64,000 bases of DNA from an uncultured Dokdonella sp. (GTDB lineage Bacteria; Pseudomonadota; Gammaproteobacteria; Xanthomonadales; Rhodanobacteraceae): positions 11,558-75,557 of the forward strand of contig CAZORA010000007.1 in the NCBI GenBank assembly GCA_964582225.1. Direction: 5' to 3'. Under the pieces are notes generated by a model. That model was not told the origin of the DNA. It worked only from the letters and a program-made list of their open reading frames with translations, and ran no database searches. Shown piece after piece: positions 6,738 through 62,850 of this stretch. The position numbers and the translations under genes are program-made. Numbering within the stretch: the first letter of the stretch is position 1; each line of letters begins with the position of its first letter.

Positions 6738-6970
6738 GTCGAAGCTGTCCACGAAAATGATCTCACTGCGCGTCATCGCGAGATGATCATGGACGCTGGT
6801 GTTGCCTTTCCATGCCGGATACCCGCTCGGTCCGCTCGCCGGCAGCACGCGAATGAGCTGAGATCCCTGGTGCCAGCGGCACTGCGTCGATGCTCCAGTC
6901 CGTGGTCCCCGTGCCCGCGCCGGGAGGGCCAGCGCCACCGCTGCCCATGCAACGGTGGCGCCGGTTTCAT
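6738..6970 (-). pseudogene. Decayed gene for a secreted protein
   Basis: ATG AAA 5 nt after previous stop, then out of frame a signal-peptide-like GATVAWAAVALALPARA; same frame later gives EIIFVDSFD (6738-6764). Confidence 0.4.
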
Positions 6971-6974
6971 GCGC

Positions 6975-7667
6975 TCAGTCGTAGTCCCACAGCACACGCA
7001 CCTTCTGCAGCCTCATGCCGGAACCGACGCAGGTGTTGAAGGTGGCACGCACCTCGTAGCTGCAGCGGGTGCTGTTCACCCAGCGCCCCGGACCGACATG
7101 CGCGTTCAGCCAGACTGGCCCGGGCGCATCGGCGGCGCTGGTGACCGGGCCGGCGAATCCCACCACGGTACGAAACGCGGGATCGGGATTGTTGGTGCGC
7201 TGGCAGATTTCCCATAGCGACACCTCGACGCCGGCCGTGGTGGACTCATCGACCGCCCACACGTCGATCCAGGTGATGCGGTGGTCGCTGGGAAACTCGA
7301 TCGCCGCATCGGCTACCCTGACCGGCGAGCCGGGTTTGCAGGACACGCTGGTGCTGCTGTCGAATGTCGTCAGCGCGCCCTGGCCGCGGAAGTGGAAATC
7401 CGGGCCGGCCACCGAAGTCCAGATCGGGTCGACCAACGGGTTGGGTGCCTGCGGGCTGGCGCCATCGCGGGCGAGGCGCGCAGCGAGCAGATCGCGATGA
7501 TCGAACGCGGGCGCCCGCCACACCTCATCGGTCAGCGGGTCGAAGCCGAGGGCGCGGATCTCGGCCGGGTCGGTGACCCGCACGTCGCCGGGCAGGGGAT
7601 CGGCCAGGGCCACCGTGCCCAGGGCCAGACCGGACAGGACGACCACAAGGGCCAGAGGGGTCTTCAT
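6975..7667 (-). CDS. Secreted hypothetical protein, paralog P3
   Basis: GAGGTG SD before MKTPLALVVVLSGLALGTVALA signal peptide (alternative start 7685 overlaps upstream stop as ATGA); 4 Cys in mature part; motif blocks shared with neighbours. Confidence 0.85.
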   Translation of the reverse strand: MKTPLALVVVLSGLALGTVALADPLPGDVRVTDPAEIRALGFDPLTDEVWRAPAFDHRDLLAARLARDGASPQAPNPLVDPIWTSVAGPDFHFRGQGALTTFDSSTSVSCKPGSPVRVADAAIEFPSDHRITWIDVWAVDESTTAGVEVSLWEICQRTNNPDPAFRTVVGFAGPVTSAADAPGPVWLNAHVGPGRWVNSTRCSYEVRATFNTCVGSGMRLQKVRVLWDYD

Positions 7668-7681
7668 CGTGGTCACCTCGT

Positions 7682-8272
7682 TCATGGCAGGTCGTGGTCG
7701 ATGTTGGTGTTGAACATGCCGCGGAAGATGCGGTCGGGAATGTCCGCCTCGATGAACACCTTCTGCACGTAGGACGTGCCGGTGGTGCAGGGCACGGTGC
7801 TGATGTCGAAGCGCACTTCGGCCCAGTAGCGGCAATCGAGGTTGACGGGTGCGTCGCCGACGGGCATGGAGCTGATGTAGTAGCCGTCGGCGTTCCCGTT
7901 CGGGATTGCGCTGGCCAGTTCCGTCGTGGTCGGGTTCAGCTCGTTCTGGGTCATGCAGCTCTTGACCACGCGGGTCGTTGCCGCGGGCGCATTGGAGGTG
8001 CGGCGCCCATACACGTTCACGAAGGCGATCCTGTAGCGGTCAGGCATCGTGAACGGATAGCGCACGATGTGTGGCGTGCCGCGTGTGGCGGCGTTCGTGC
8101 ACAGGTAGCCGCCGTTGGAATGGGTGAAGTCATCGGCCGTCTGCGCCGGTTGCCCGGCCACGCCGGCGATCTCGCGATACTCGCGGTTGTGGAAGATCAC
8201 GCTGTCGTTGGCCAGCGCGTTGGAGGCGAGCAGGCAGCCGGCGAGCGTCGTCATGGAGAGTGCGTTGCGCAT
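7682..8272 (-). CDS. Secreted hypothetical protein, paralog P2, with DRIFRGMFN tail
   Basis: AGGAG SD before MRNALSMTTLAGCLLASNALA signal peptide; 4 Cys in mature part. Confidence 0.85.
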   Translation of the reverse strand: MRNALSMTTLAGCLLASNALANDSVIFHNREYREIAGVAGQPAQTADDFTHSNGGYLCTNAATRGTPHIVRYPFTMPDRYRIAFVNVYGRRTSNAPAATTRVVKSCMTQNELNPTTTELASAIPNGNADGYYISSMPVGDAPVNLDCRYWAEVRFDISTVPCTTGTSYVQKVFIEADIPDRIFRGMFNTNIDHDLP

Positions 8273-8286
8273 GTTCAGGCTCCTGT

Positions 8287-8910
8287 TCATTGCCCGTGCT
8301 GCACGCGGATCTTGCGCACGGTCGAGGTGTCGCAGTTGCTGAACTCGACGTAGGCCCAATAGGTGCAGACATGGGCATCGGTGACCGGTTCGCCGGCCAC
8401 AGGCGTGCTCACCGTGAAGCTGCCGGCACTGGTTCCACTACTGATATCGGCGAGATTCTTGTTCACCGGCGCGCTGGCCGCACCGAGGTCGGGCAGGCAG
8501 GATTCGCGCAGGATCACCCGGATGTCGTTGGTGGCCGAAAAATCCTGCCCCCACATGCGGAAGAACTGAAGCTTGCGTCCGTGCGGAATGGGCAGGCGCG
8601 CATAGGCCCAGCGGCTGGACGCCGGTTCCACACACCAGAAGCTGGCGGTGTCCTGGTGGGTTGCGATCGGCAGCCCGTTGCCGCTGGAACGAAAATCCAC
8701 CCCCAGCACGTTGGTCCAAGTGACATCGGGCAGCATCTCGGCCGGCAGCAGCTCGGCTTCGGCGATCCCGGCATCGGCGTCGAACGCCCACGGTGCGGAC
8801 TCGGCGCTGGTCGAAATGGCCCCGCCGGGCGCCTGTTCATCCAGCGGTGGGGCCGCGCTGGCGACGCCCGTGAACAGTGCCAGGGCGATGGTCAAGCAGG
8901 TTCGTTGCAT
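8287..8910 (-). CDS. Secreted hypothetical protein, paralog P1
   Basis: GGAGA SD; signal peptide MQRTCLTIALALFTGVASA; 4 Cys in mature part; motif blocks shared with P2/P3. Confidence 0.85.
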   Translation of the reverse strand: MQRTCLTIALALFTGVASAAPPLDEQAPGGAISTSAESAPWAFDADAGIAEAELLPAEMLPDVTWTNVLGVDFRSSGNGLPIATHQDTASFWCVEPASSRWAYARLPIPHGRKLQFFRMWGQDFSATNDIRVILRESCLPDLGAASAPVNKNLADISSGTSAGSFTVSTPVAGEPVTDAHVCTYWAYVEFSNCDTSTVRKIRVQHGQ

Positions 8911-9202
8911 GATTGTCAGCTCTCCGGTTCAGGTTTCGCGATACGACGACCGACGTGGCGGGGAAGCCGCATCGCCGCGCGTCGATGGTGCAGCGCCGTT
9001 CGGCGATGCGATTGCGCCCGGCGCGCACGCGGCGCGGCCCGGATCGACCCATCTGGAAACCTACTAGCGCGAAATCGCGCGCAAACCAGACATGTCGTGC
9101 ACAACTGGATCGAGCGTGCGGGCCGGGCGCAGCGCCTCAAGCGCGTGTTCGGCATTCATCATTGCATCGCCATGCGGTGGCGATGTCTGCGCAAGACGCA
9201 CT

Positions 9203-10786
9203 CTATTGCCGCGCCAAGGCCTTGCGCAGAGAATCGAGCAGCGCGCCGTAGCGGCCCGCTCGCGCGGTATCTTGGCGGATCGGCTGGCGCACCTGGGTGG
9301 CGCTGGCCGTGCGTACGCTGCGTTCGGCTTCGAAGAAACGCAGGCAAGCCGGATCGAACGGCAGCGCGCAAAACTCGAGCAGGGCGCGCGTCTGGGCTTC
9401 CGTGTCAGCCACCAGCGCCTCGTAGGACTGCGCGCGGATATGCGCCGGATCACGCGCCTGCCAATGCTGCATGGTCTCGGCGTAATCGTGGAAACAGGCG
9501 ACCAGGTCGCCGAGGTCATAGCTGTATTCGTGACCGGCCCAGAATATCTGGCGGAAGCAGGACAGGCAGGTTTCCAGCGGATCGCGCCGGCAGTCGATGA
9601 TGTGCGCGCCCGGCAGCATGGCGCGGATGGCGCCAACCAGCATCCAGTTGCCGGGGGTCTTGTCGGTGAAACGCGGGCGCCGCTGGCGCCACTTGGCAGT
9701 GCGCGCGAGGTAATCCTCGCCGAGGCGCTGCCAGTCGGTCGGCGTGACGTCGGTCACCCAGGCCGGAAACGCCTTGCCGCGACGGCGCGATTCGGCGCCT
9801 ATCAGCATGCCCAGATCGGTCAGCTCGCTGCCGCCTTCCACTTCGGGGTGGGCGGCGAGGATCTGCTCGGTCAGCGTGGACCCCGAACGCGGCAGGCTGA
9901 CGACGAAGATCGCCTCGCTCCCCAGCGCCGCGTCGGGCGCGCGGGCCACGGGTCCATCGAAGGTCATCCTCAGCTGTCCGACCCAGGCATGGAAGGCAGC
10001 GGCATTCCACGGAAAGCGCTGGCGACCGAGACGATTCGCCGCGAGGTAGGCCGAGTAGGCGTCGGCGTAGCGCGCCGCATCCTCCAGCGCACGGGCGCGG
10101 GCAAAAGCCAGGCCGATGCGCTCATCCAGCGACAGGTCCTTGTTTTGGACGACCGTCTCCAGCGCCGCCAGATCGTCCTGCGTGAAACATAGCGACTTCA
10201 GATTGGCCAGACCCCACCAGGCGTGTCCAGAGGTGGGCTTGAGCGCGAGAAACTGCCGGTACTGGGCCGCCGAGGCGTCGCTGCGCCCCAGCATCATCAG
10301 CGCCTCGGCCAGCAGAAAATGCGCGGACTCGAGCGCCGGTTCAAGCTCGAGCGCGCGCCGCAGCGGCGTCAGCGAATCATCCAGGCGCGCCTCCAACTGC
10401 AGCAGCTTGCCAAGGTTGAACCACCCCGCGGCATCGCTCGGCGCAAGCTCACAGGCACGACGCAGCGTGGCTTCGGCGCCGGCCGCGTCGCCGAGGTCGG
10501 CCAGCAGGCGGCCGAGCTCGCCGTGCAGCGTAGGATTGTCCGGCAGGCGCTCGAGCGCCTGCCGCAGGGCAGCCGCAGCCGCAGCGCCCTGCCCCATTGC
10601 GCGCAGCGCCGCGGCGTGCGCCACGAGCAGGTCGACGTCATGGGGAGCCGCCCGCAGCGCCTCCGCAAGGCAGCGCTCGGCGCCGACAAAATTGCCCTGC
10701 GCGAGGAGCCGGCGCGCGAGCTGCAGCTGCCGCTGTCGATCCGCCGGCACGCCGGATGAGGCCACGGGGGAATCCGCCGGACTCAT
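9203..10786 (-). CDS. TPR-repeat-containing PAPS-dependent sulfotransferase
   Basis: N-terminal TPR-like helical repeats; 5'-PSB motif FVVSLPRSGSTLTEQIL, DKTP, 3'-PB motif RRDPLETCLS, VRTASATQVRQPI; start set at ATG 10786 after GGGGGAG. Confidence 0.92.
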   Translation of the reverse strand: MSPADSPVASSGVPADRQRQLQLARRLLAQGNFVGAERCLAEALRAAPHDVDLLVAHAAALRAMGQGAAAAAALRQALERLPDNPTLHGELGRLLADLGDAAGAEATLRRACELAPSDAAGWFNLGKLLQLEARLDDSLTPLRRALELEPALESAHFLLAEALMMLGRSDASAAQYRQFLALKPTSGHAWWGLANLKSLCFTQDDLAALETVVQNKDLSLDERIGLAFARARALEDAARYADAYSAYLAANRLGRQRFPWNAAAFHAWVGQLRMTFDGPVARAPDAALGSEAIFVVSLPRSGSTLTEQILAAHPEVEGGSELTDLGMLIGAESRRRGKAFPAWVTDVTPTDWQRLGEDYLARTAKWRQRRPRFTDKTPGNWMLVGAIRAMLPGAHIIDCRRDPLETCLSCFRQIFWAGHEYSYDLGDLVACFHDYAETMQHWQARDPAHIRAQSYEALVADTEAQTRALLEFCALPFDPACLRFFEAERSVRTASATQVRQPIRQDTARAGRYGALLDSLRKALARQ

Positions 10787-10992
10787 CAGCACTCCCCCGG
10801 CAGTCCTGCGCTGCAGCGCGCACCGCGCTCGATGTTGATTGTCGATTTCATGACTCACCCGCTGGCGGCGGTCGAACTCGGGTCCATCGCGACACTGTAG
10901 CAAGGCACGGCGTCGGCCATAGCCGCGCGGCTGATTCCCTTTCGGTGACGTCATCCATAGAATGAAAGTTCGCTCTGCATGAAAGGATGCAC

Positions 10993-12360
10993 ATGGCGGA
11001 TTCCGCGCTGCATGTGATCGTGCTTGCCGCCGGCGAGGGCAAGCGCATGCGCTCGAAGCAGCCCAAGATGCTGATGCCGCTGGCCGGCAGCCCCATGTTG
11101 GCGCACGTGCTGGCATTGGCGCGCCGGCTGCAGCCCGCGCGCATCCACGTGGTCTACGGCCACCGTGGCCGCGAGGTGCGCGCGGCGGTCACCGACCTGG
11201 CTGACCTCGACTGGGTCGAACAGGCGCAGCAGCTCGGCACCGGCCATGCGGTGATGCAGGCACTGCCGCAGATCCCCGATGCGGCGCGAGTGCTGATCCT
11301 CTACGGCGACGTACCGCTGATTCGTGTCGCCACCCTGTCGGCCCTGCTCGCGATCGACGCACCGCTCGCCGCCCTGATCACCCGACTCAGGGATCCTTCG
11401 GGCTACGGCCGCGTGCTGCGCGATGCAGACGGACGCATCCGCTCGATCGTGGAGGACCGCGACTGCAGTCCCGCCGAGCGCGCCATCTCCTGGATCAACA
11501 GCGGGATCCTGACGGCGAATGCGGCCCGCTTGCGCGCCTGGATTGCTCGCCTGACCAGCGCCAACGCCCAGGGCGAGTTCTATCTCACCGACATCTTCGA
11601 TGTGGCCAGCGCGGCCGGCGAGCCCGCTGCGGCCTGCGAATGCGGCGATCCGAACGAAGTGCTGGGCGCCAATGATGCCTGGCAGCTGGCAACGCTCGAG
11701 CGCATCTGGCAGCGGCGCCGGGCGATGGAGCTGGCGATGGCGGGAGTGCGCTTCGCCGACCCCGGCCGCTTCGACGCGCGCGGTGAGATCGTGGTTGGGC
11801 GAGACGTCTCGATCGATGTGGACGTGATCCTTGAAGGTCTGGTAGAGCTGCAGGACGATGTCCATGTTGGCCCTTACTGCCATATCCGCAACTCAACCCT
11901 GGCCGCTGGCACTGTGCTGCGCTCCCACTGCAACCTGGACGGGGTCATCACCCATGGTCCCTGCGAGATCGGCCCGTTCGCGCGGCTGCGGTCGGGCACC
12001 GAGTTGGCCGCCGGCGTGCGGGTCGGCAACTTCGTCGAGCTCAAGCAGACCAGCATCGGCCGCAACAGCCAGGTCAATCACCTGAGCTATCTCGGCGACA
12101 CCAGCCTGGGCGCCGACGCCAATATTGGCGCCGGCACCATTACCTGCAACTATGACGGCGCCGAAAAGCACCGCACGATCATCGAGGACGGCGCCTTCAT
12201 CGGCTCCAACAGCGCGCTGGTCGCGCCGGTGCGGATCGGCTGCAACAGCACCATCGGCGCCGGTTCGGTGATCGTCAGCGACGCGCCGGAAGGCGAGCTG
12301 ACCCTGGCCCGCGCGCGTCAGCAGACGGTCGCAGGCTGGCGCCGCAAGCGCGCGCGCTGA
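10993..12360 (+). CDS. glmU: Bifunctional UDP-GlcNAc pyrophosphorylase/glucosamine-1-P acetyltransferase
   Basis: [29 protein letters not shown], hexapeptide repeats, [11 protein letters not shown]. Confidence 0.97.
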
Positions 12361-12387
12361 GTGCCGGCGGCCCGACCGGAGGATCCG

Positions 12388-13677
12388 ATGCAGGTAGAGC
12401 TGCCCGAGCTTGAGCACGCGCGGCTTGCGATCATCGGCCTCGGCTACGTCGGCCTGCCGCTCGCGGTCGGCTTCGGCAGACGCCGCCCGACTCTGGGCTT
12501 CGATATCAGCGCCGCACGCATCGCCGAGCTCGAGGCGGGCCACGATCACACTCTGGAAGTGTCGACGGCGGAGCTGGCCGCCGCTCGCGAGCTGCGCTTC
12601 TCTGCCGATCCCGCCACGCTGGTTGGCCAGGATGTCTTCATCGTCAGCGTGCCGACGCCGATCGACGACGCCAGGCGGCCCGACCTCGCTCCGCTCAAGG
12701 CCGCTAGCCGCACGGTCGGACGCGCAATGCGCCGCGGTGGCGTGGTGATCTTCGAGTCCACCGTCTACCCCGGCGCTACCGAAGAGGTCTGCGTGCCGAT
12801 CATCGAGCGCGAATCCGGCCTGCGTTACCGCGTCGATTTCCACGCCGGTTACAGCCCCGAACGCATCAACCCCGGCGACCGCGAGCATCGCCTCGAGACG
12901 ATCTGCAAAATCACTTCCGGCTCGACTCCCGCGGCGGCCGACTTCGTGGATGCCCTGTATCGCAGCGTGATCAGCGCGGGCACTCACAAGGCCTCCAGCA
13001 TTCGCGTGGCCGAGGCGGCCAAGGTGATCGAGAACACCCAGCGCGATCTCAACATCGCTCTGATCAACGAGCTGGCGCTGATCTTCCATCGCCTTGGCAT
13101 CGACACCGGCGACGTGCTGGCGGCGGCGGGCACCAAGTGGAACTTCCTGCCGTTTCGACCTGGCCTGGTCGGCGGCCACTGCATTGGCGTCGACCCGTAT
13201 TATCTGACCCACAAGGCGCAGCAGGTCGGCTACCACCCGGCGGTGATCCTCGCCGGTCGGCGCATCAACGACGACATGGGCGCGCACGTCGCGCAGCGGG
13301 TGATCAAGCTCCTGACCCGACGCCGCATCCTTGTCGCGGACGCCCGGGTGCTGATTCTCGGCCTCGCGTTCAAGGAGAACTGCCCCGACCTGCGCAACAC
13401 CCACGTGATCGACGTGATCCGCGAACTCGAGAGCTACCAGGCGCAGGTCGCGGTGTGCGACCCGTGGGTCGAGCCGGGAGAGGCGCGGCGCGAATACGGG
13501 ATCGAACTCGTCGCCCTGCCGCAGCGAGCGGAGTACGACGCCGTCGTGCTCGCCGTCGCGCACCGCGAGTTCGTCGCCCTCGGCGCCGCTGGCGTGCGCG
13601 CGCTGACCCAGCCCGCAGGCGTGGTGTTCGACGTCAAGCAGGCGCTGCCACGCGAGGCGGTCGACGACCGCCTGTGA
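12388..13677 (+). CDS. tviB: Nucleotide-sugar (UDP-HexNAc) 6-dehydrogenase, TviB/WbpO family
   Basis: GLGYVGLPLA, ESTVYPG, SPERINPGD, GGHCIGVDPYYL, FKENCPDLRN; GGAGG SD. Confidence 0.85.
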   Translation: MQVELPELEHARLAIIGLGYVGLPLAVGFGRRRPTLGFDISAARIAELEAGHDHTLEVSTAELAAARELRFSADPATLVGQDVFIVSVPTPIDDARRPDLAPLKAASRTVGRAMRRGGVVIFESTVYPGATEEVCVPIIERESGLRYRVDFHAGYSPERINPGDREHRLETICKITSGSTPAAADFVDALYRSVISAGTHKASSIRVAEAAKVIENTQRDLNIALINELALIFHRLGIDTGDVLAAAGTKWNFLPFRPGLVGGHCIGVDPYYLTHKAQQVGYHPAVILAGRRINDDMGAHVAQRVIKLLTRRRILVADARVLILGLAFKENCPDLRNTHVIDVIRELESYQAQVAVCDPWVEPGEARREYGIELVALPQRAEYDAVVLAVAHREFVALGAAGVRALTQPAGVVFDVKQALPREAVDDRL

Positions 13678-13692
13678 ATCCCAGGAGTCCGC

Positions 13693-14718
13693 ATGCGCAT
13701 CCTCATTACCGGCGCCGCCGGGTTCATTGGCTCGGCCCTGAGTGCATACCTGCTCGCCCGCGGCGACGAAGTGCTCGGCTATGACAACCTGAACCCCTAT
13801 TACGACCCGCGGCTCAAGCGCGCGCGGCTGGAGCGGCTGGTTTCGCAGGCAGGCTTCCGCTTTGTCCAGGCCGGCATCGAGGATCGCGCTGCGCTCACCG
13901 AGAGCTTCAGCAGGTTCCGTCCGCAGCGGGTGGTCAATCTCGCCGCGCAGGCTGGCGTGCGCTACTCGTTGGTCAACCCGCACGCCTATGTCGAGAGCAA
14001 CCTGGTCGGTTTCACCAACGTGCTCGAGGCCTGCCGGCACGGCGAGGTCGAGCACCTGGTCTACGCCTCGTCGAGCTCGGTCTACGGCGCGAATCGCAAG
14101 CTGCCGTTTTCCGTGCAGGATTCGGTCGACCATCCGGTCAGCCTTTACGCGGCAACCAAGAAGGCCAACGAGCTGATGGCGCACACCTACAGCCATCTTT
14201 ACGGCCTGCCGACCACCGGGCTGCGCTTCTTCACGGTCTACGGCCCGTGGGGGCGACCGGACATGGCGCTATTCCTGTTCACGCGCAAGATCCTCGCCGG
14301 CGAGCCGATCGAGGTCTTCAATCACGGCCGCCACAGCCGCGACTTCACCTACATCGACGATATCGTCGAGGGCGTAGTGCGCACACTCGACCGGGTGGCA
14401 GCGCCGAACGCGGACTTCGACCCCATCAAACCCGATCCGGCCACTTCGAGCGCGCCGTACCGGGTCTACAACATCGGCAGCCATCGACCGGTGGAGCTCT
14501 CGCGCTATATCGAGCTCATTGAGGATTGCCTCGGCCGGCGCGCCGAGAAAAAGCTGCTGCCGATGCAACCCGGCGACGTGCCCGACACCTACGCCGACGT
14601 CGAGGAGCTGATCCGCGACACTGGCTACGCACCGAGCACGCCGGTCGAGCTGGGCGTGCGCCGCTTCATCGATTGGTATCTCGAGTTCTACGCCGCGCCG
14701 CGGAGCAGCTCGGATTGA
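13693..14718 (+). CDS. NAD-dependent epimerase, UDP-glucuronate 4-epimerase-like
   Basis: [43 protein letters not shown]. Confidence 0.92.
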
Positions 14719-14767
14719 CGTGCTTCGCCCGAAGGCGTCACGAAGAAGCTGCACGAGCGGCGGGGTG

Positions 14768-14795
14768 AAAAAGGGCCGGCCCGCGGCCCCGGCCT
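14768..14795 (-). terminator. Probable intrinsic terminator for cysteine synthase gene
   Basis: On minus strand AGGCCGG...CCGGCCC followed by TTTTT, between convergent genes. Confidence 0.55.
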
Positions 14796-14857
14796 GAAGT
14801 CAGACCCAGGCACCACGGGCCGGCTCTCCGGGGAAGCGGAACCGGCTCGGCAGATCG

Positions 14858-15901: not shown

Positions 15902-16103
15902 GGTAGATACCTCTCGAATCACCGCTCAAGCGCGCAACGCATCGGCTTGCCGGGGCTGCGCGTCGGCCCTTCAGATTTCAAAAGGAACGACCGTCAGCTT
16001 GCAGCTCGCGCCCAAGCCAGTGAAATGAGATTCGGGTCTCGCTCGATAAGCGCAAGGCATATGCGGCGACGTCGTTCAGGCTCGACGCCGCAACGCTGGC
16101 GCC

Positions 16104-17891: not shown

Positions 17892-17972
17892 GAGGGCTCC
17901 GCAGATACCGCGAATGAAGTGAGCCGCGTATTCTACTGCGCGCGCTTGCCTGCGCACAACTCGACTTCAGGC

Positions 17973-31337: not shown

Positions 31338-31991
31338 ATGAACAATCATCAAATCCGGCGGCGATCGACACTACAGCCGCTGGGCTGGGCGCTCGCTGGT
31401 CTACTCGCATCGGCCAGCGTCGGCGCGGCGCCAGCCGAAATGCTTTCCTCGGCCGAAGGCCGAGCTGCAGCGGCGCCGCCGACCAGCCAGGTCGCAGTCG
31501 ACGCCAGCGCCCTCGACGCAATAACGCCCGCCGCGCTGACCTGGAATTACCTCAACGTGGCCGGAAGCATCTTCCAGGACCGTCAGGATACGGACACCTT
31601 CTATACCGATCTTGGGGATGGCTGCGTGTATCTGACGGCCGGCAATCGCCTGGAGACCAAGCTGATGCTGCCGGAGGGCGCCTACGTTCGTTACGTGCGC
31701 GCCTTCTTCTACGACACGAGCCCTCAGGATCTCTACGTCTGGCTCGTGAAGTTCGATGGCGCAGGCATGAATCAGGATCTCAGATATGTGACTTCGAGCG
31801 GTGACAGTGGCTACGGGACGACCTTGAGCAGTCTCGTCAACTACACGGTCGATCACTACGAGAGCCCGCTGTCTCTGGTGATGGGATCGTACGTTCATGA
31901 CTCCAGTCTGCAGCTCTGCGGCGTCAGGATTGCCTACTACACGGCGCAACAGATGCTGGACGATACGATCTTCAAAGACGACTTCGACTGA
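31338..31991 (+). CDS. Secreted hypothetical protein, paralog P5, ending DTIFKDDFD
   Basis: GGGAG SD; signal peptide ending ASVGA; clear similarity to P4 (GC, LPxGA, DGAG, CGxR). Confidence 0.85.
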   Translation: MNNHQIRRRSTLQPLGWALAGLLASASVGAAPAEMLSSAEGRAAAAPPTSQVAVDASALDAITPAALTWNYLNVAGSIFQDRQDTDTFYTDLGDGCVYLTAGNRLETKLMLPEGAYVRYVRAFFYDTSPQDLYVWLVKFDGAGMNQDLRYVTSSGDSGYGTTLSSLVNYTVDHYESPLSLVMGSYVHDSSLQLCGVRIAYYTAQQMLDDTIFKDDFD

Positions 31992-33784: not shown

Positions 33785-34114
33785 GTCAGCGGTGAAGCCC
33801 ATCGTGCCGCGGCAAGCCAACCCGGCAATGCCGTCGCATAGCGACCGGGAACATCCGGGCAGGCGGCGTTCGTCTCGCCGCTTCCGCGCGCACCGCGGAG
33901 GTCGCAGATGAACGCTTCAGCATCCGGGACGCGCGGTCGCCTCAGCGCGCGGCGGAGCGAGGCGCCTGTTGTTTTCAGCGATCTAGCGTCGAAAGCCGCC
34001 CGCTTCACGGACATGACGAACTGCCTCGGATCTTCCTGGGCTTTGCAGCCGGCTCTGCGCGCTACCGGAAGGCCGCTAGGCGCGTCGCGCCTCTTCGCGT
34101 ACACTGCGCTCACC

Positions 34115-34360
34115 ACGGGTGTCCCGCGCGCGGCTCTCGCGCACGGGGTGAAACGGGAAGCTGGTGCGAGCGCCGACGGTCGAGCCGACCGCCGCCGATC
34201 AAGGCCAGCGCTGCCCCCGCAACGGTAAGCGAAGCAAGATGGGCCATGCGCCACTGCCGGAAACGGCGGGAAGGCGGTCCATCGGATGTGCACTCGCAGC
34301 GCGTGATCACCACGCGACAGCGCGTACCCATCATCCGCAAGCCCGGAGACCGGCCCGCGG
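34115..34360 (+). ncRNA. Cobalamin riboswitch
   Basis: AAACGGGAAGCTGGTG (34151), CTGCCCCCGCAACGGTAA (34211), GCCACTG..GGGAAGGC, B12-box AAGCCCGGAGACCGGCC (34339); upstream of BtuB-like gene. Confidence 0.95.
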
Positions 34361-34490
34361 CAGGCGCGTTTGCGCCATGGCTCCAGGCGTTGCGGCGGGC
34401 AACGGACGGGCATGGTCCGTCCCGGTCCGCGCGCGCCCATCTCGCCTTCCTTGCCTGGTTTCTGCGGGTGTGCAAGTGAAGGAGTGATCC

Positions 34491-54596: not shown

Positions 54597-54698
54597 GCGC
54601 CGATTGTGGCAGGCGCCGCGGACCGGCGACCACTGCCGCAGGCGATCGCCGCAGCATAACCATCCGTTCACCCAGTTCATGGCATCGTCTGCGCCCGC

Positions 54699-56561
54699 AT
54701 GAACCGACCGAATACTGCCGACCGCTCGAAGCCGCGCCAGCCCGCGGGCGCGCTTGCCGCCGCTAGCCTGCTGCTGATCACGGCCGCCGTGGCGCTCCTG
54801 GATCCGGCGGTCGCAAGCGCCCCGAGCGCAGGGTCTCCGCAGTGGCTTGGCGTCGTCGGCCTGAACTTGCTGCCGCCGCTGATCGTGTTCGCCCTCCTGC
54901 TCGCAGCCACCGGACGCGCGCTGTTCTCCGCGTGGTTGGTAATCCTGCTGCTGACGGCGCTCCACGCTGCCAACGTGGCCAAGCTCGCGACGCTCGAAAT
55001 GCCTCTCCTGCCGGCGGATTTCCAGCTGCTCGCAAACCCGGGGCCGACCCTCGATCTGCTTTGGAAGTACGTCCATGTAGGGCTCGGGCAGTGGCTCCTG
55101 ATCGCCCTCGCCGCACTGATCACCGCGCTGCTCTGGCGCCTGTACCCGCGTGTTTTGTCCGGCATGCATCGCGCTGTGCTCGGGGTGCTTGCGCTCGTGG
55201 GCGGCGCCAGCCTGGTCACGGGCAGCGCGCCTTGGCCGCGCCTTTTCGATGCCAACGCGCTCGGCTTCCAGCTCTGGGAGCAGACGCTCAGCAGCGCGCG
55301 CGTCGGTCTGCTCGGAAATCTGGTGCTGTACAACTGGCAGATCGGCAGCGGCGACATTCCCAGCGGCGATCACGTGCTCGCTGCGCGCTTTCTCGAACGC
55401 CATCGCGCGGCCCTCCCTGACCGCGACCATCGCTCGCAAAAGGCTCGCCCTCTACCCGATATCGTCGTCGTGCAGAGCGAGTCGCTGTTCGATCCGGCGC
55501 GCGTCAGCGGCGTAGTCGAGAACCGCTGGCTGCCGGCCTACCACCGCCTGAGCCGGCGGGCGACCGCCGGCGATCTGTGGGTACCAACCTTCGTCGGCGG
55601 CACCATCCGCACTGAATTCGAGGTTCTCACCGGCGCGCCACTGACGAGCCTCGGCGGCGTACAGTATCCGTGGCTCGAGCTCAAGCACGCCGACTACCCG
55701 AATCTTGCCCGACTGCTCGGCGCACACGGCTACCGTCGTATCGCGATCCACCCCAACCCGGCCGCATTCTGGAATCGCGCCCGCACCTACCCCGCACTCG
55801 GCTTCGAGCACTTCATCGACAGCACTCAGTTCGATGGCGAACGCATCGTCGGCCTGTTCCTTTCCGATGCGGCCATGACCGACCGCATCCTGGCCGAACT
55901 GGACGAAAGCGAAGGGCCACACTTCGTGTTCGCGATTTCCATGGAGAACCACGGCCCCTTCGACTGGCGGCCCAACCTCGATCCCGAACGTCTCGCTCGG
56001 CTGCAGATGCCGCCTGCCCTCGACGCCGGCGGTCGCCTGTGGTTCGGCAACTACCTGTATCTGCTGGACGACGCCGACCGCGAGCTAGGGCGCCTCGCCC
56101 AGGCCCTGCACAAGCGTCGCCGGCGCACGCTGCTGCTCTTTTACGGCGACCATTTGCCCGGCCTCGCGCCGGTCTACCAGCAGCTCGGCTTCAAGAATGG
56201 TCGCCAAGCCATCGAGCAACCGGTGCCTTGGCTCCTGCTCGACACTGCAAGCAAGCGCGCGAAACGGCTAGACACCCACAGCTGGATGCTCCCCGGACTC
56301 CTGCTCCGCGCGGCGGGCCTCCACGATGCGGCCTGGTTCGACCTGGTTGCCGACCTCGCCCTCGACCCCGCCTTCGATCCCACCGAGCCGCAGGCCGCCG
56401 AGGGACTCGAAGCGCTCGCCCGTCTCCAGCTTCGCGGTGAACTGGACCCATTGCTCGCGCAGCTGCAATCCAGTCGCGCGCGCGGTTCCGCCGATACGCA
56501 AGCGGCACAAGCACACGCCCCGAGCTCGCCGGCCTCGCCCTCGACGGCGGCGCCGAGGTGA
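54699..56561 (+). CDS. LTA-synthase/sulfatase-like membrane phosphotransferase
   Basis: Five N-terminal TMs; QSES, GGTIRTEFEVLTG, SMENHGPF, YGDHLP. Confidence 0.88.
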   Translation: MNRPNTADRSKPRQPAGALAAASLLLITAAVALLDPAVASAPSAGSPQWLGVVGLNLLPPLIVFALLLAATGRALFSAWLVILLLTALHAANVAKLATLEMPLLPADFQLLANPGPTLDLLWKYVHVGLGQWLLIALAALITALLWRLYPRVLSGMHRAVLGVLALVGGASLVTGSAPWPRLFDANALGFQLWEQTLSSARVGLLGNLVLYNWQIGSGDIPSGDHVLAARFLERHRAALPDRDHRSQKARPLPDIVVVQSESLFDPARVSGVVENRWLPAYHRLSRRATAGDLWVPTFVGGTIRTEFEVLTGAPLTSLGGVQYPWLELKHADYPNLARLLGAHGYRRIAIHPNPAAFWNRARTYPALGFEHFIDSTQFDGERIVGLFLSDAAMTDRILAELDESEGPHFVFAISMENHGPFDWRPNLDPERLARLQMPPALDAGGRLWFGNYLYLLDDADRELGRLAQALHKRRRRTLLLFYGDHLPGLAPVYQQLGFKNGRQAIEQPVPWLLLDTASKRAKRLDTHSWMLPGLLLRAAGLHDAAWFDLVADLALDPAFDPTEPQAAEGLEALARLQLRGELDPLLAQLQSSRARGSADTQAAQAHAPSSPASPSTAAPR

Positions 56562-56638
56562 TCGCTCTCGAACACCAGGTTCGTCTGCAGCGCCTGCTGC
56601 CGGGACGCAGTTGGTGTTGGCGAGCTTACGAGCGACCC

Positions 56639-56672
56639 GCCGACCCGACCCGACGATTCGGATCGGGTCGGC
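56639..56672. terminator. Hairpin between convergent genes
   Basis: GCCGACCCGA / TCGGGTCGGC 10-bp stem; no clear U tract. Confidence 0.4.
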
Positions 56673-56767
56673 GCGCGCTCACGGAATCAGGGGCGGGACG
56701 TCCACGCCGCGAACGGCGAGCGTCGCGCGCAGCAGGTTGGGGTCAGCGCGGTCGGAGCAACTGGCTG

Positions 56768-57277
56768 TCAGTCGCTTTGGGCAACCAAGGCGGAATAGCT
56801 CTTGCGCGCCGCAAGAAAGAGGTCGAAAGGGAACTTGATCGGTACGCCTTCGAGGGCGGCGGCGAGCATTTCGAGGTGGCCTTCAAAGCCAGCACAGGCC
56901 TTGGCGATGTCTTCGTCTGCGGGAACGCGCACGCTGAGGACGAGACGGGTGCCGGCGTCGACGTCGAAGAGCTCCCAGCGCAGGGGCCGTTCAGGCTGCT
57001 CGCCGCGGCTCCAGGAGTAAGCGAGGACGCGCCCGGGAGTGAAGTCGAGAAGATGGCTGTCGATCACCTGACCGCTGTCGGCGAAGTCGATCCGCACGGT
57101 GCCACCGGGGCGCTGGTCGATCGATCCGGGGGCCAGCCATTCAGCCATCGCGGCGGACTCGGTAAGGCGACGCCAAAGCTCCGCCGGCGCGTGGTCGAAC
57201 TCACGCTGCAGCACGCCTTCGAAGCCACCAGCAGCAAGACGGCGAATGGTTCCGGGCTTGAACTCGTCTACGCTCAC
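56768..57277 (-). CDS. SRPBCC/AHSA1-like protein
   Basis: AAGGAG SD before GTG; REFDHAPAELWRRLT..EWLA, LAYSW, GTRLVL. Confidence 0.85.
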   Translation of the reverse strand: MSVDEFKPGTIRRLAAGGFEGVLQREFDHAPAELWRRLTESAAMAEWLAPGSIDQRPGGTVRIDFADSGQVIDSHLLDFTPGRVLAYSWSRGEQPERPLRWELFDVDAGTRLVLSVRVPADEDIAKACAGFEGHLEMLAAALEGVPIKFPFDLFLAARKSYSALVAQSD

Positions 57278-57359
57278 GGCAGCTTGCTCCTTGGCGAGTA
57301 AGAGCCGACAGTGTAGCGAGCGCGGGCGGGCGCGCGGCTGAGCGGAGTCAGCTCGCGTC

Positions 57360-60300
57360 TCAGCGCACGTCGCGGCCTGGCTCGGGGCGGACGATCGGCT
57401 TCCAGGGAACGACCGGCGGGCTGCTTCCGAGACCGCCGGCGCAGAAGTCTTCCGGGTGTACGTCGCGCTGGTCGGGACAGCCGTCGAAGGTCCTGGCAAT
57501 CGCCCTGAGCGGTGTGTCCCAAGGCGTCACCCGCTGCACGCAGGTCGGCTCGGGCGCGGCGATGCGCTGCGCGGGCACGTTGAAGCTCGCCGGCAGAGTG
57601 AAGCTGAAGCCGGGGCAGCCGGCAGGTGGGCAGTCGGGGAGCGCCCTGGCCCAGGAGCAGACGGCGTCGTGCTCCGCGCTGCCGTCGGCGCTGACGCACT
57701 GTTCGCCCTGCACCCGGCAGAACGAGCGCGGCTGGCAGCTGTAGTTGAGCTCGGCCTGCTGGTCGGCGAGCGTCGGCGCGGGGAAATCGGCGGCGCCGAA
57801 GGTGATCTCGTAGATGCCGCTGGCCGGGTCGTCCTGGTACCAGCCGCTGTGGGTTGGCGCGCCGGGCTGCGCTGCAAAGGTCGGTGGGTTGGTGCCGATG
57901 TGGGCACGCAGGAGGCCGATGCTCGCCGGGTCGAAGTCGGCGCCGACGTAGATGCGATAGGTCTGGCTGGTGCCCTGGTCGGCGTAGAGCTGGAAAAGGT
58001 GATAGGTCTCGCCGGCGCGGAAGACGGTGCGGTCGCAGGCGCCGCCGCCGGGGATCGCGTGGCAGGCCTGGTCCTGCAGTTCGCCGGAGGCGCTGGTGTC
58101 GATGAAATAGGTGCCGCCGTTGACCGTGAGCGAACTGCGCTGGCCCGTCTCTTGACCCATCATGCGCATTTCGTGCGCGATGCCCTCGTCTGTTTTCTCC
58201 ATCCGATTCTGCCGGATCAGCGGCACGCCGTAGCAGCGCTCGCTGGTGCAGGTCTTGCTCCAGTCGCCGCCGACCTGGGTCGGGTAAATCACGGTGGTGA
58301 CGAAGTGGTAGGGGCTGGTGCGCGAGGATTCGGCCGACTTGCACTCGGTGGAGTCGATCGGCCCGGCAAAATATTGGTCGTTGTTGACCACGGTGCTGTT
58401 GACGAAGCCGGTCAGGGTGCCGTCATCGTCGTTCAGCACCGTCTGGCGGTCGTTGCCGGCGAAGCCAACGAAAGTGTTGCGGTCCCAGACGCAGTATTTC
58501 TCCGCCAGCTTGTCGTAATCGGTTTCGAAGCTGCCGTTCTTGTAGAAGGGCGTGATCACGTAGTGGCGCGTGTCTACGTTCTCGAAGTAGAGATCGCGCG
58601 AGTGGAAGGCCGGTGGGTAGTAGAAACCGTTCGGCTGCTTCCAGCCAATCGCCGCGTTGGGCATGTAGCAGCGCCCGCCGCTGCGCAGCAGGCCCTTGAC
58701 CGTACCGGCGAGCCAAGCGCTTTGCCGCTTGCGGCTGCTCGCGGCCGGCTGGCAGCTGCCGACCCGGTTCGCCTCATCGACGAAAGGACTGCAGTCGTCG
58801 ACAGTTCGCGAGTGGATTTCGAGATACGCGTTCGATTCCTGCCAGGCCGGCCCGTCGTAGACGCTGAACATGCGCTGGTACATGCCGAAGTTGTCGATCT
58901 GGTGGCTGATGCCCTCGTCCTTCGACAGGCAGTAGTTTCCCGGCCGGTTGCCGGCCGCGTCCGTCGCGCATTCGAGAGCCTGTGGATTGAAGGGCCCCCC
59001 GTCGGAGGCGTAGGGATTGTCGGGCTGGGTGCTGCCGACGAAAGCGCTCTTGCGCACCAGCGCCCAGTGCCCCGGGACCACGTCCGACTCGCTGTAGCCG
59101 CCGCCAGTGACCATGGTGAGACCGGCTTGCTGCACGTCGGTAATCACGCTGTCAGTCACCAGATACCACTGCGGGCGCAGCCAGATCGCGGCGAAATTGA
59201 AGGTGGCCCAGTTGAACGAGGTGTTGAAGCGATCGAGCACGGTGACCATGCAGTTTTCCAGCCGGTCGCCGCCGCAGCGCGGCAGGGTGCTGCAGTCTTC
59301 GCCGCTGCACTGGGTGGCGAAGCGACCACCATCGCCGAGCAGCGGGTAGTAATCGGCGTCCGGCGCCTGTGGCACCAGGGGGTTCGACACCGGACGCAGG
59401 GTCAGCCCGGGATCGCCGCCGCTCTGCACGCCATGGCAGGCGGAGGTGGCGGTCACGGTCTGGAAGGCGGTCATCGCAGTCGAGCAGAAGTTGCCCTCGA
59501 AGGATTGCAGTGGGGTCATGCCGGCGCGATCCAGTGAGCTCTGCATCGAAGCGTAGGAAGTCCACTTCATGCTGCGCGACATGCCGCTGTTGGCACCGTC
59601 CAGAAGCCAATAGCAGGCGCCGCAGGTGCCGGCGCCGACCGCCATGTTGTCAGTGAACCGATTCCAGCCGTTCATGATCCAGAACACGGTCGGATGGTCG
59701 TAGTCGGACTTGAAGGGCATGCGATCGGCGTCGCTGCCGTCGTCGAGCGCCAGGATGCCAGGTACCTTGCGCGGGTTCTGCGCGTTGTCTACCGCGGCGC
59801 GGGCGAATACGCCGAGGTTGGCGGTGAGCACGTTGTCGGTTTCCGTGCCGTCCTCGAGATAGAAGCCGTGACCGATCGACTTGTAGCCGATGTTGCGCTC
59901 GAGATAGACGTTTTGCGCACCATGCAGGACCACCCATCGGGTCATCGATTCGTTGATCGAGGAATCGCGCAGGAAGGTGTCTTGCGGCACGTGGCGCACG
60001 AGGTGGAAGTGCACGGGATAACGCCCCATCACTCCGCCCTGGCCGAGCTGGCGGAACTCCACGCCCTGGATCTGCGCCTTGGCGAAACCCTGCCGGATGA
60101 CCACGTGACCGCCGTAGTAGTAACCGCTGGCCTCGTCCGGAAACGGCTCGCCGGAGTGGTCGCCGGCTGAGGCGATCTGGATCGAGCGGCTGAGCACACC
60201 AACCGCGGCGCGAGTCTCCAGCGCCTCGCCGTTGCCAGTGCGGGTCGGACCGACGCTGAGCGGAGTCTGACCCAGCGAGTAGCGCTTGCCGTTATGCGCG

Positions 60301-61244
60301 AACTGCACGCCGTTTGTCAGCGGAATGCTGGTCACACAACTCACGTCCGCACCCACCGTCAGCGTTTCCGAGTGGCCCGGCAGGTAGTCGGTGCTGGTCA
60401 GGACGATTTCGTCACCCTGTGAAAACGACAGCGGGCGATCCACCTGCAGCTGGTTCGCGCCCGGCTCTACCGAGGCGGCGAGCCGCGCCCAGCTGCTCGC
60501 GCTGCTCGTGGGGTAGCTCGCGCCGCACTCACCGCGTCCGGCGAAGCTCGCGCCCTTGCGGCCGTAGAGCTCGAGCGTGCCACCATAGGCAACGCCCAGC
60601 ACCTTGCTGCCGAAATAGCCCTGGCGACCCTGTGCGTCACGACCGCCGGCATGCGGCAGCGGGTGATAGGAATAGAAGTAATCGTGGGCGATCTTCGGGT
60701 CATCCTTGGCGTTGGGGTAGGTCTCCTTCAGGTTCGCGGCCTCGATCGTGCGCGCGCTGTTGGCCGGCAGCCACTTGCCGCTTGCGTCCAGGTTGGAGTT
60801 CCAAACTTCATCGGGAATGCCGCAGTGCCCCTGTTCATCAGACTGGCAGATGACGCCGGTAACTTCGGCGTGGGGGTTGGCGGCGACCGGGTCTTCGCCC
60901 CAGAGGCGAATGACGAGCCGGCCGCCGTGACTGCCGATCGGCGCTGCGGGACTGCCGGCGCGGAGCGTGCCACCGTTTTCGACGAGGATATTGGCGGCGC
61001 TGAAGTCGATCTGTTCGTCGGCGAACTCGAGCGTACCGCCGCGGACGATGTGCAGGTTACCGAAGCGGTAGGTGCCGGCGTGAACGCAGGTCCAGGTGTC
61101 GATCACACGTTCCGCGTCGGTCATCTGCTGCGGCAGATCTTCGACACAGCCGCTCTGCGCACGGGCGCACGGCAGAACGCCGGGCAGCAGTGGCAACCCC
61201 AGGGCCAGCAGCGCGCAGGCCGTCCGGTGAAGAAGCGTAATCAT
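57360..61244 (-). CDS. Secreted G8-domain beta-helix protein, TMEM2/CEMIP-like
   Basis: Signal peptide, G8-like start, AVGVLSRSIQI, GQGGVMGRYPVHFH, LHG..N.G..GHGFYLEDG.E..N, VFWI; Cys-rich. Confidence 0.85.
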   Translation of the reverse strand: MITLLHRTACALLALGLPLLPGVLPCARAQSGCVEDLPQQMTDAERVIDTWTCVHAGTYRFGNLHIVRGGTLEFADEQIDFSAANILVENGGTLRAGSPAAPIGSHGGRLVIRLWGEDPVAANPHAEVTGVICQSDEQGHCGIPDEVWNSNLDASGKWLPANSARTIEAANLKETYPNAKDDPKIAHDYFYSYHPLPHAGGRDAQGRQGYFGSKVLGVAYGGTLELYGRKGASFAGRGECGASYPTSSASSWARLAASVEPGANQLQVDRPLSFSQGDEIVLTSTDYLPGHSETLTVGADVSCVTSIPLTNGVQFAHNGKRYSLGQTPLSVGPTRTGNGEALETRAAVGVLSRSIQIASAGDHSGEPFPDEASGYYYGGHVVIRQGFAKAQIQGVEFRQLGQGGVMGRYPVHFHLVRHVPQDTFLRDSSINESMTRWVVLHGAQNVYLERNIGYKSIGHGFYLEDGTETDNVLTANLGVFARAAVDNAQNPRKVPGILALDDGSDADRMPFKSDYDHPTVFWIMNGWNRFTDNMAVGAGTCGACYWLLDGANSGMSRSMKWTSYASMQSSLDRAGMTPLQSFEGNFCSTAMTAFQTVTATSACHGVQSGGDPGLTLRPVSNPLVPQAPDADYYPLLGDGGRFATQCSGEDCSTLPRCGGDRLENCMVTVLDRFNTSFNWATFNFAAIWLRPQWYLVTDSVITDVQQAGLTMVTGGGYSESDVVPGHWALVRKSAFVGSTQPDNPYASDGGPFNPQALECATDAAGNRPGNYCLSKDEGISHQIDNFGMYQRMFSVYDGPAWQESNAYLEIHSRTVDDCSPFVDEANRVGSCQPAASSRKRQSAWLAGTVKGLLRSGGRCYMPNAAIGWKQPNGFYYPPAFHSRDLYFENVDTRHYVITPFYKNGSFETDYDKLAEKYCVWDRNTFVGFAGNDRQTVLNDDDGTLTGFVNSTVVNNDQYFAGPIDSTECKSAESSRTSPYHFVTTVIYPTQVGGDWSKTCTSERCYGVPLIRQNRMEKTDEGIAHEMRMMGQETGQRSSLTVNGGTYFIDTSASGELQDQACHAIPGGGACDRTVFRAGETYHLFQLYADQGTSQTYRIYVGADFDPASIGLLRAHIGTNPPTFAAQPGAPTHSGWYQDDPASGIYEITFGAADFPAPTLADQQAELNYSCQPRSFCRVQGEQCVSADGSAEHDAVCSWARALPDCPPAGCPGFSFTLPASFNVPAQRIAAPEPTCVQRVTPWDTPLRAIARTFDGCPDQRDVHPEDFCAGGLGSSPPVVPWKPIVRPEPGRDVR

Positions 61245-61536
61245 GGTTGGAACCTCCGCAGCTGCGACTGGCGCACGTCGCGGGCTCGGCGCAGGATGCG
61301 GGGGACGACGCGGCTGGTGTTCACGAGAGTTTGCATCTCACGCCAGTTTCAGCAAGCGAATTCAGACGTAAATTTTCGTGTCGAACCCGAGCGTGGAGGA
61401 GCACTGCTGGCGGCGAGTCACCGGATCATCCCGAACCACCCTGCGTCAACCCACGTCCCGCGGTCACCCGCGTCACCCCCTTTACAGCACCATGGCGGCA
61501 TGGTAGTCGGATTCCTGGCCACCCCCGAGCCGCCTG

Positions 61537-62850
61537 ATGATCGTCTGCCCTGGTTGGATCGCGCGTAACGCCATCGGCCTGCACCGCGCCGCTGGCGCAC
61601 TGGCTTGCCTGACCGCGTTGTGCGTCGCCGCCCCGGCGCAGGGCCGCAGCGTGCCGGTCGACTCGGTGCCGGCGCTGCGCAATGCGCTGGCCGCCGCGCA
61701 GCCGGGCGACGACATCGTGCTCGCAGCCGGAGCCTACGCGGTCAGTGGCAACCTGACGGCGGAAGTCGACGGCACTGCCGCGGCGCCAATCGTGCTGCGC
61801 CCAGCGACGCCGCGGAGCGTGCTGCTGCGCTTCGCCAGCGCCGGCACGGCCGTCGAGGGCTTCAAGGTATCCGGCGCCTGGTGGCGCTTCGAAGGCCTCG
61901 ACATCGAAGGCACCTGCGCCAGCGACAGCGACTGTGAACACGCGTTTCACGTCATCGGCGGCGCCGATCACCTCGTGATTCGCGACTGCGAACTCCGCGA
62001 CTTCAACGCGCAGATCAAGGCGAACGGCATGGTGCTCGGCGCGGACATGGTCTTTCCAGACGACGTGCTGATCGAGCGCAACCTGCTGTACGACACGCGC
62101 GCGCGCAATACGGCGAATCCGGTGACCAAGATCGACGTGGTAGGCGGCCGGCGTTGGATCGTGCGCGCGAACACCATCTACGACGGCCAGAAGGGGGGCG
62201 GCGACGAGGTCAGCTATGCCGCCTTCCTCAAAGGCAACTCGCGCGACGGCCTGTTCGAGCGCAATCTGGTGCGCTGTGCTTGGCATACGGCGGGGGGCGT
62301 GCGCATCGGCCTGTCGTTCGGCGGCGGCGGCACCGGCGCGCAGTACTGCGAGGACGGCAGCTGCGAGACCGAGCACCAGAACGGGGTCATGCGCAACAAC
62401 CTGATCATGGACTGCAGCGACGTCGGCATCTATCTGAACCGCGCCGCGAACAGCCGGATCGAGCACAACACGCTGTACGCGACGAGCGGCATCGACGTGC
62501 GCTTTACCACCTCGAGTGCGGACCTGCGCAACAACCTCTTGAGCGGCGTGATCCGCAACCGCGATGGCGGCACTCACACGGCGGAAGGCAACCTGAGCGG
62601 GATCACGGTGGTGACATTCGCCGCCTGGTTCGTCGATCCCGCCAGCGCCGATTTTCGCCTGCTGGACGGCGGCGCTTTCGTCGACCAGGGCGCGCCGGCG
62701 CCGCTCGTCGTCGACGATTTCTGCGGCACCGCGCGCAGCGATGGCCTACCCGACATCGGCGCCCTCGAGTACCAGCCGGACGCCCGCTGCGCCACGGACA
62801 TTGGCGGCGGCGGGATCGGCGAACGCATTTTCGCCAACGGCTTCGAATGA
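61537..62850 (+). CDS. Secreted right-handed beta-helix protein (chondroitinase-B/pectate-lyase-like) ending ERIFANGFE
   Basis: Signal peptide, LRNALAAAQPGDDIVLAAGAY, repeated IxxNx strands, DFRL..DFCGTAR..PDIGALEY tail. Confidence 0.82.
   Translation: MIVCPGWIARNAIGLHRAAGALACLTALCVAAPAQGRSVPVDSVPALRNALAAAQPGDDIVLAAGAYAVSGNLTAEVDGTAAAPIVLRPATPRSVLLRFASAGTAVEGFKVSGAWWRFEGLDIEGTCASDSDCEHAFHVIGGADHLVIRDCELRDFNAQIKANGMVLGADMVFPDDVLIERNLLYDTRARNTANPVTKIDVVGGRRWIVRANTIYDGQKGGGDEVSYAAFLKGNSRDGLFERNLVRCAWHTAGGVRIGLSFGGGGTGAQYCEDGSCETEHQNGVMRNNLIMDCSDVGIYLNRAANSRIEHNTLYATSGIDVRFTTSSADLRNNLLSGVIRNRDGGTHTAEGNLSGITVVTFAAWFVDPASADFRLLDGGAFVDQGAPAPLVVDDFCGTARSDGLPDIGALEYQPDARCATDIGGGGIGERIFANGFE

Follow-up and report, generated by a model that had tools for sequence, protein, structure and literature searches.

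A nine-residue peptide on secreted proteins of Dokdonella and its relatives: a candidate sorting signal that co-occurs with a second type II secretion system

In a 64-kb stretch of the genome of an uncultured Dokdonella sp. (G000, contig C7, positions 11558-75557; this whole stretch is called the window), secreted proteins carry at or near their C-terminus a tag of nine residues with the consensus D-x-I-F-x-[DNS]-G-F-[DE]. Our analysis identifies this tag as an uncatalogued sorting signal occupying the slot of known surface anchors, and we hold it very probable that it serves sorting or anchoring in some form. The reading that we favor, with a probability of about 0.5, is that the tag is a portable linear targeting signal for type II secretion, free of any transmembrane (TM) segment and read by a second type II secretion system (T2SS), one that is specific to the lineage.

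The scale of the motif in the genome was evaluated on 2,386 genes predicted by a crude gene caller of our own. The loose motif [ILVM]F...F[DENQ], located at most 20 residues from the stop, was found in 47 of these genes versus 2.9 expected from its internal rate; three of the 47 are evident chance matches in cytoplasmic enzymes. The stricter consensus, restricted to genes of at least 80 amino acids with a stop, retained 41 genes that fall into 32 unrelated blastp clusters. Across these carriers the phenylalanine at position 4 is present in 41 of 41 and that at position 8 in 40, while position 3 is I in 36 and L in five, and position 7 is G in 36. Position 1 is D in 32 and E in five, position 6 is D in 24, N in seven and S in six, position 9 is D in 22 and E in 17, and positions 2 and 5 are variable. 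Conservation is limited to these nine columns, after which 0 to 19 mostly polar residues precede the stop. A signal-peptide-like start without internal TM segment was observed in 37 of the 41 carriers versus 551 of the 2,219 other genes (lenient heuristic, Fisher p 3e-18), and a TM segment after residue 45 in none of the 41. The preliminary description of the window had suggested looking for an enrichment of the motif at C-termini proteome-wide and for an enrichment on signal-peptide proteins; both were borne out, the second by a crude heuristic.

The cargo consists of typical surface hydrolases and adhesin-like domains. It includes peptidases of families S8, M12B, M14, M28 and M64, GH44, endonuclease I and PQQ-type dehydrogenases, and further DUF11, GEVED, LRR and choice-of-anchor Q proteins. 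Additional copies of the tag directly follow signal peptides or lie where two domains meet, which indicates that a free C-terminus is not needed. The motif had initially been described as terminal: this holds for the copies at C-termini, and the term proved too narrow for these other copies. Tandem tags 27-36 bases apart were also noticed, at L071 and in genomes G558 (C3, C33, C44 and C55), G321 (C16) and G483 (C1). It had also been asked whether the motif is already a defined family, and we found no model for it. NCBIfam gave no match to the tail in six proteins of the window, in 18 other carriers or in five tails, and Pfam none in 28 tails, although the HMMER filters may lose very short matches. 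No usable match for the tail was obtained from the ESM Atlas. A full-text literature search that included literal motif strings found no paper on the motif, supplements and most subscription papers being outside its coverage.

Comparison of homologues revealed what stands in the place of the tag when it is missing. The 120 best homologues of the beta-helix protein of the window end in the tag or a variant in 113 cases and in a PEP-CTERM-like tail in seven, and the PEP-CTERM-like motif, helix and Arg cluster begin at the tag's own position. Similarly, the tag closes 65 of the 73 homologues of a tagged protein of 90 residues (L127); the eight most distant ones carry dockerins (two, PF00404), LPxV/I-type tails (three), FFRL-type tails (two) or a TM tail (one). 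Two adjacent genes of G000 (C3:55090-55590 and C3:55664-58597) have a common N-terminal segment, and one ends in a TM-type tail (VPAL.. followed by a helix and an Arg cluster), the other in the tag. Secreted proteins of about 90 residues that combine a single short domain with the tag are encoded at L146:15365-15658 and at L064, L102, L127, L141 and L170; in G000 one such gene comes after a large untagged S74-domain gene. These small proteins are possible adaptors. Taken together, the 32 clusters, the signal-peptide enrichment, the exchange of tails and the lack of a family model support the earlier proposal of a modular TM-less tag for sorting or anchoring, as does the co-occurrence with a secretion machine that is described below. 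The exchange with dockerins and membrane anchors would also suit another function, which we consider possible, if rather unlikely: the tag may be an extracellular docking peptide, comparable to a minimal dockerin, that, once exported, binds a surface scaffold or an outer-membrane receptor and retains the enzyme on the cell; the second T2SS would then track the tag for no other reason than that the cargo has to be exported. The occurrence of the tag at either end or internally and the tandem copies at L071 are in line with such docking; against it, the neighborhoods that were read, around tagged, T2SS and C25 peptidase loci, yielded no scaffold.

The distribution across genomes was surveyed with the DNA pattern D-x-I-F-x-[DNSG]-G-F-[DE], relaxed for some genomes. 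In a sample at the level of the class, two of 300 genomes matched, once each. Among 151 genomes of the family (Rhodanobacteraceae), 12-128 matches were obtained in 37, two in G342 (23 with the relaxed pattern), one in G400 and none in 112; the reversed pattern gave no match in any of the 151. The distribution in the family is all-or-none, with 38 tag-rich genomes. Named records with the tag, among the 80 matches listed of at least 124, belong to Dokdonella, Rudaea, Marinicella, Aquimonas, Ahniella, Pseudolysobacter and a Thermoanaerobaculia metagenome-assembled genome, and the carriers in Dokdonella and Marinicella include named isolates. The sequence of the tag differs between lineages, with DRFE in G496 (60 relaxed matches) and DSFE in f237, a pattern that co-evolution with a reader would predict. 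In Acidobacteriota, the phylum of the Thermoanaerobaculia genome, four of 151 genomes hold 5-15 copies of a longer form, IFxDGFESGDTSAW, in which the protein (L330-L342) ends mostly 7-12 residues past the core. This long form presumably resembles the start of jelly-roll domains and, with the internal copies that precede further domains, could suggest that the tag has no role in sorting and is what is left of the first strand in a beta-sandwich domain, or else serves stability. We give this explanation very little credence: it accounts poorly for the conservation of F4, F8, I3 and G7 across 32 unrelated clusters, for up to 128 copies per genome, for the all-or-none spread and for the exchange with known anchors.

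Phylogenetic profiling for co-occurring machinery, proposed in the preliminary description and carried out here on T2SS genes and the C25 peptidase, identified a second T2SS. G000 encodes two systems, an Xps-type cluster on contig C43 and a second set in two parts, gspG-N on C2 and gspC-F on C14. This second set is present from gspC to gspN, and its GspC is of the HR and PDZ type; GspC of G000 has its closest named homologues in Dokdonella sp. The second GspK (E ≤ 5e-66) was found in exactly the 38 tag-rich genomes of the 151 in the family; in a split genus (g278) it is present in five of five tagged and none of four untagged genomes. The seven genomes of g297 gave an intermediate GspK match (1e-31 to 3e-43) and hold 0-1 tags, and in the remaining 106 the matches are weak or missing. 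The survey was extended to 140 genomes of the order, with tag counts from the strict pattern for most and from the relaxed one for 20. The second GspK was detected in 91 of them and its GspD in three more; four GspK matches in g316 are weak, and one of these was checked by its locus. All 94 genomes with the second T2SS have at least one tag match and 86 have at least two, whereas 31 of the 46 without it have none and four have at least four. Within these 46, the 12 genomes of the same family as G000 have no tag and 17 genomes of f2 have 0-1; the sole tag-rich genome among the 18 of f2 (G560, 16 tags) is also the sole one with the second GspK. Generic GspH matches occur in 181 of the 300 scored class genomes versus a tag in two of 300. 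Since generic T2SSs are common in the class while the tag is rare, the tie is to one T2SS clade, and this argues against a docking peptide that merely needs an export route.

The association with a GspK clade also bears on a donor-strand mechanism of the PilC/PilY1 type, in which the tag would complete the sheet of GspK or PilX and license pseudopilus assembly, each cargo starting its own piston. The length of about 10 residues and the position correspond to those of the PilC C-terminal strand (PMC13533445). We nevertheless consider this mechanism highly improbable: by sequence, the second GspK keeps its usual last strand (..VRVVMRSRG..) like its orthologues, the PilY1 of G000 ends in a different sequence, and N-terminal or internal tags could not thread the center of the tip. 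Strand complementation of GspK by the tag was rejected on the sequence of that intact last strand.

The minor pseudopilins GspH, GspI, GspJ and GspK were then compared between tag-bearing genomes and two tag-less systems, and one clear difference emerged: the pair Cys47/Cys119 of mature GspH. All 21 GspH sequences examined from tag-bearing genomes have this pair, including two that had been left out of the profile, and it occurs in none of 39 others, namely seven from g297, two Xcs proteins and 30 from other Gammaproteobacteria (29 best matches and G060). It is also missing from the solved structures 2QV8 and 2KNQ. The model of the second GspH shows a normal GspH fold, with a predicted local distance difference test (pLDDT) score of 93 and 2QV8 as best match (E 1e-8); Cys47 belongs to the long helix and Cys119 to a strand, and we infer a disulfide. 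Searching the ESM Atlas with this GspH returned GspH families only. No column of GspI, GspJ or GspK is fixed in the tag-bearers and changed in both negatives, except, weakly, D72 and G228 of GspK; for GspM and GspN there was no negative sequence for comparison. The PDZ domain of GspC was rejected as a marker, as it is likewise present in the tag-less g297 and Xcs proteins and shows no conspicuous tag-specific column. GspC is still a candidate reader, second after GspH. The free C-terminal hydrophobic residue of canonical PDZ ligands was not found in the tag, which ends in D/E, is often followed by 1-19 residues and also exists in N-terminal copies.

Several observations weigh against the reading of the tag as a signal for the second T2SS. 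The first concerns f239, whose 17 genomes hold tags without the second GspK (0, 0, 0, 0, 0, 1, 1, 1, 1, 2, 2, 3, 3, 4, 7, 10 and 16). Relaxed matches occur in 12 of the 17, with the highest numbers in G569 (16), G557 (10), G465 (7) and G456 (4), and the tags inspected are true terminal or post-signal tags. Neither the second GspK nor a GspH of the Cys type was found in the 17 genomes, where GspH is only Xps-type, and the second GspD is absent from the three tested. Likewise, no GspK passed the Pfam cut-off in the four acidobacterial carriers, three of which have only a general acidobacterial T2SS-like cluster that is present too in the tag-less G586. Two weak matches to a GspK of gammaproteobacterial type in these carriers were dismissed as a ComEA-like gene and a PilQ-like secretin. 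The presence of the tag in f239 and Acidobacteriota, where the second T2SS was not found, suits the docking peptide, as would, if this strain carries the tag, the protease activity of Wenzhouxiangella AB-CW3, which is reported to be cell-bound and not in the supernatant (PMC7691419). Conversely, g297 has a second T2SS yet 0-1 tags, though its GspH is without the Cys pair. In a quick tree, g297 GspH falls among generic ones (support 83-85, a weakly supported placement), which would explain this exception. With weak support, the second T2SS of g297 (L248-L256) looks like one of the generic systems of Gammaproteobacteria and could stem from a separate acquisition. Furthermore, related genomes do not count as independent cases: both the tag and the machine seem to be ancestral to the order, and their match thus rests on few losses and not on 140 independent trials. 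The Cys pair of GspH may simply mark the clade. Profiling covered T2SS genes and the C25 peptidase, so that a better-fitting reader may exist, and C25 fits the distribution in the family as well as the second T2SS does.

In G000, a tagged C25 peptidase gene adjoins gspC. The C25 domain (PF01364) was detected in exactly the 38 tag-rich genomes of the family, once each over the cut-off, and in none of the 113 others. The catalytic His (GHGG) and Cys are retained in 16 of 16 aligned proteins, and the best solved relative is PorU (6ZA2, E 8e-10). C25 also adjoins a PMT-type glycosyltransferase gene in G000 and in the acidobacterial genomes G581 and G572. Pairs of C25 and PMT genes were seen at L149:11240-15256, L365:4751-10260 and L366:1806-7624, with identities of 35-38% for C25 and 32% for PMT (G581), and Wzt and glycosyltransferase genes lie near some of the pairs. 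A cross-phylum module for anchoring to a glycan is possible. The exact match in the family, the conserved catalytic pair, the kinship with PorU, the PMT neighbor and the finding of C25 in three of the 17 genomes of f239, which are three of its four richest in tags, would all agree with the tag being a sortase signal, the PorU-like C25 cutting near it and attaching the cargo to a glycan on the surface, as happens in type IX secretion. Such a function is improbable. C25 was not found in the tag-bearing genomes G560, G558, G483, G453 and G557, which were tested directly, nor in 12 of 17 genomes of f241, 11 of 17 of f238, f236 or f237. C25 domains are, moreover, common in Acidobacteriota (72 of 151 genomes), most of which are tag-less. 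N-terminal tags do not suit a C-terminal transpeptidation, and C25 has a worn tag at its own end, like a cargo protein. C25 as an obligatory sortase was rejected in view of tag-bearing genomes where it was not found and of C25 domains in tag-less ones; we read C25 as cargo or as an optional anchoring step.

The features of the window are listed in Table 1. A six-frame search with [ILV]F..[GSDMN]F[DENQ] returned four matches in the whole window, which are the four peptides first noticed there, each at its expected place and strand. Three of them belong to intact genes, and all three proteins begin with a signal-peptide-like segment, as had been reported. The beta-helix carrier was assigned to the right-handed beta-helices by a family library search; in its AlphaFold 2 model the last 17 residues (421-437) are without secondary structure and the pLDDT drops from 74 to 47. 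No Pfam or NCBIfam family matched P2 or P5, both of about 200 residues. The three-gene run that includes P2, coding for secreted proteins of about 200 residues, is repeated on contig C15 (46410-48376, minus strand), where the P2 paralogue ends in DRIFRGTFS plus eight residues and is likewise degenerate. In runs of this type only the middle gene carries the (degenerate) tag, and the three products may thus be exported as a complex; related runs occur in one of five genomes of the same genus. The fourth peptide had been ascribed to a decayed gene, for which we found no support: its frame, antisense over atpC, shows neither codon bias nor a significant homologue (best blastx match at E 1.8), and the next stop is 264 residues away. 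The stretch may be a remnant of a gene.

Table 1. Tags, carrier genes and other features of the window (positions are those of the 64-kb stretch).
Feature	Position	Strand	Remark
Tag ERIFANGFE	62821..62847	+	Last 9 residues, stop directly after
Tagged secreted beta-helix protein, 437 aa	61537..62850	+	Partial choice-of-anchor Q segment directly before the tag
Tag DTIFKDDFD	31962..31988	+	Last 9 residues, stop directly after
P5, tagged secreted protein of ~217 aa, no named family	31338..31991	+	
Untagged P5 paralogue, directly upstream of P5	30687..31325	+	blastp E 8e-7 to P5; end without tag
Degenerate tag DRIFRGMFN	7709..7735	-	M at position 7; 8 residues before the stop
P2, tagged secreted protein of 202 aa	7682..8290	-	Middle gene of the three-gene run
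Untagged secreted protein	8287..8910	-	First gene of the P2 run
Untagged secreted protein	6975..7667	-	Third gene of the P2 run
Tag-like string EIIFVDSFD	6738..6764	-	In no supported gene; chance or remnant
Cobalamin riboswitch	34100..34372	+	84.5 bits

If the tag is a signal for the second T2SS, the following pathway can be proposed. The cargo would first be exported by Sec or Tat, as the signal-peptide-like starts suggest. Once folded, it would leave the tag as a free arm at the C-terminus or, more rarely, at the mature N-terminus; these positions are observed, and the disorder of the arm is predicted. The arm would dock uncleaved on the second T2SS, with the two Phe and the Ile in a pocket. 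GspH, the adaptor at the pseudopilus tip, is the first candidate for the reader because it alone has a change linked to the tag (Cys47/Cys119), and the PDZ-bearing GspC is the second. The cargo would then cross the secretin. In Rhodanobacteraceae, the PorU-like C25 and the PMT-type glycosyltransferase may, more speculatively, fix it to a surface glycan, a step that would be optional since many tag-rich genomes are without C25. Untagged partner genes and the domain-plus-tag proteins of about 90 residues may also let untagged proteins ride along. The complete scheme, with a nine-residue signal usable at either end, a dedicated T2SS whose GspH is remodeled by a new disulfide and an optional PorU-like sortase to a glycan, is put forward tentatively, at a little under even odds.

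The nine-residue motif, carried by tens to over 100 proteins in a genome and paired with one T2SS clade, poses a directly testable question. A linear T2SS signal, if real, would give a direct answer to a long-standing question and, if portable, would provide a minimal handle for exporting folded proteins. In the case of a docking peptide, too, the tag is a TM-less sorting signal that has not been catalogued, and it marks out the surface proteome in several families of Xanthomonadales and in some Acidobacteriota.

Several known systems have features in common with the tag. Like the CTERM signals (GlyGly-CTERM with rhombosortase, MYXO-CTERM with myxosortase, Synerg-CTERM, and PEP-CTERM with exosortase), it is short, present on dozens of unrelated secreted proteins, patchy in distribution and tied to a T2SS, and PEP-CTERM-like tails replace it on homologues. 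Unlike these signals, it has no TM helix and no basic cluster, is acidic, also occurs N-terminally and implies no intramembrane protease. A gene at C2:124891-125406, without Pfam match, is what we take to be an exosortase-H-like gene. GlyGly-CTERM and MYXO-CTERM cargo are reported to depend on a T2SS, and Synerg-CTERM to be accompanied by a divergent one (10.1101/2023.06.07.544157). The beta-signal of BAM substrates and autotransporters, a terminal aromatic residue that closes a barrel, does not correspond to the tag, whose carriers are soluble folds with the tail outside the fold. The tag shares with PilC/PilY1's C-terminal beta strand the size of a terminal peptide of about 10 residues and the link to tip proteins of a type IV filament; it differs from it by dozens of carriers instead of one adhesin, by a GspK that keeps its own last strand in sequence, and by a position that is not strictly C-terminal. 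The dockerin (PF00404) is also a portable docking module and takes the same slot in two homologues, but dockerins fold into a calcium-binding duplex to which cohesin binds, and no such partner was identified for the tag. The combination expected of T2SS substrates, a Sec/Tat signal and no membrane anchor, was found in 37 of the 41 carriers (crude heuristic). Among known T2SS determinants, the Ig-fold of VesB is read by the PDZ domain of EpsC (PMC12369372). Another determinant is the PelI loop. A determinant can be transferred to other proteins by grafting, and the second T2SS has a GspC with HR and PDZ; these determinants are folded and substrate-specific, whereas the tag is a shared linear motif. 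Finally, the type IX secretion system, with its C-terminal domain and PorU, resembles the tag in that the signal is TM-less on folded cargo and that PorU-like C25 and glycan genes co-occur with it in the family. It differs by a folded signal domain of 70-80 residues versus nine, and by the C25 peptidase, which is dispensable for the tag across the order. If the complete scheme holds, a logic of tag, export and anchor like that of type IX secretion would have been built on a T2SS.

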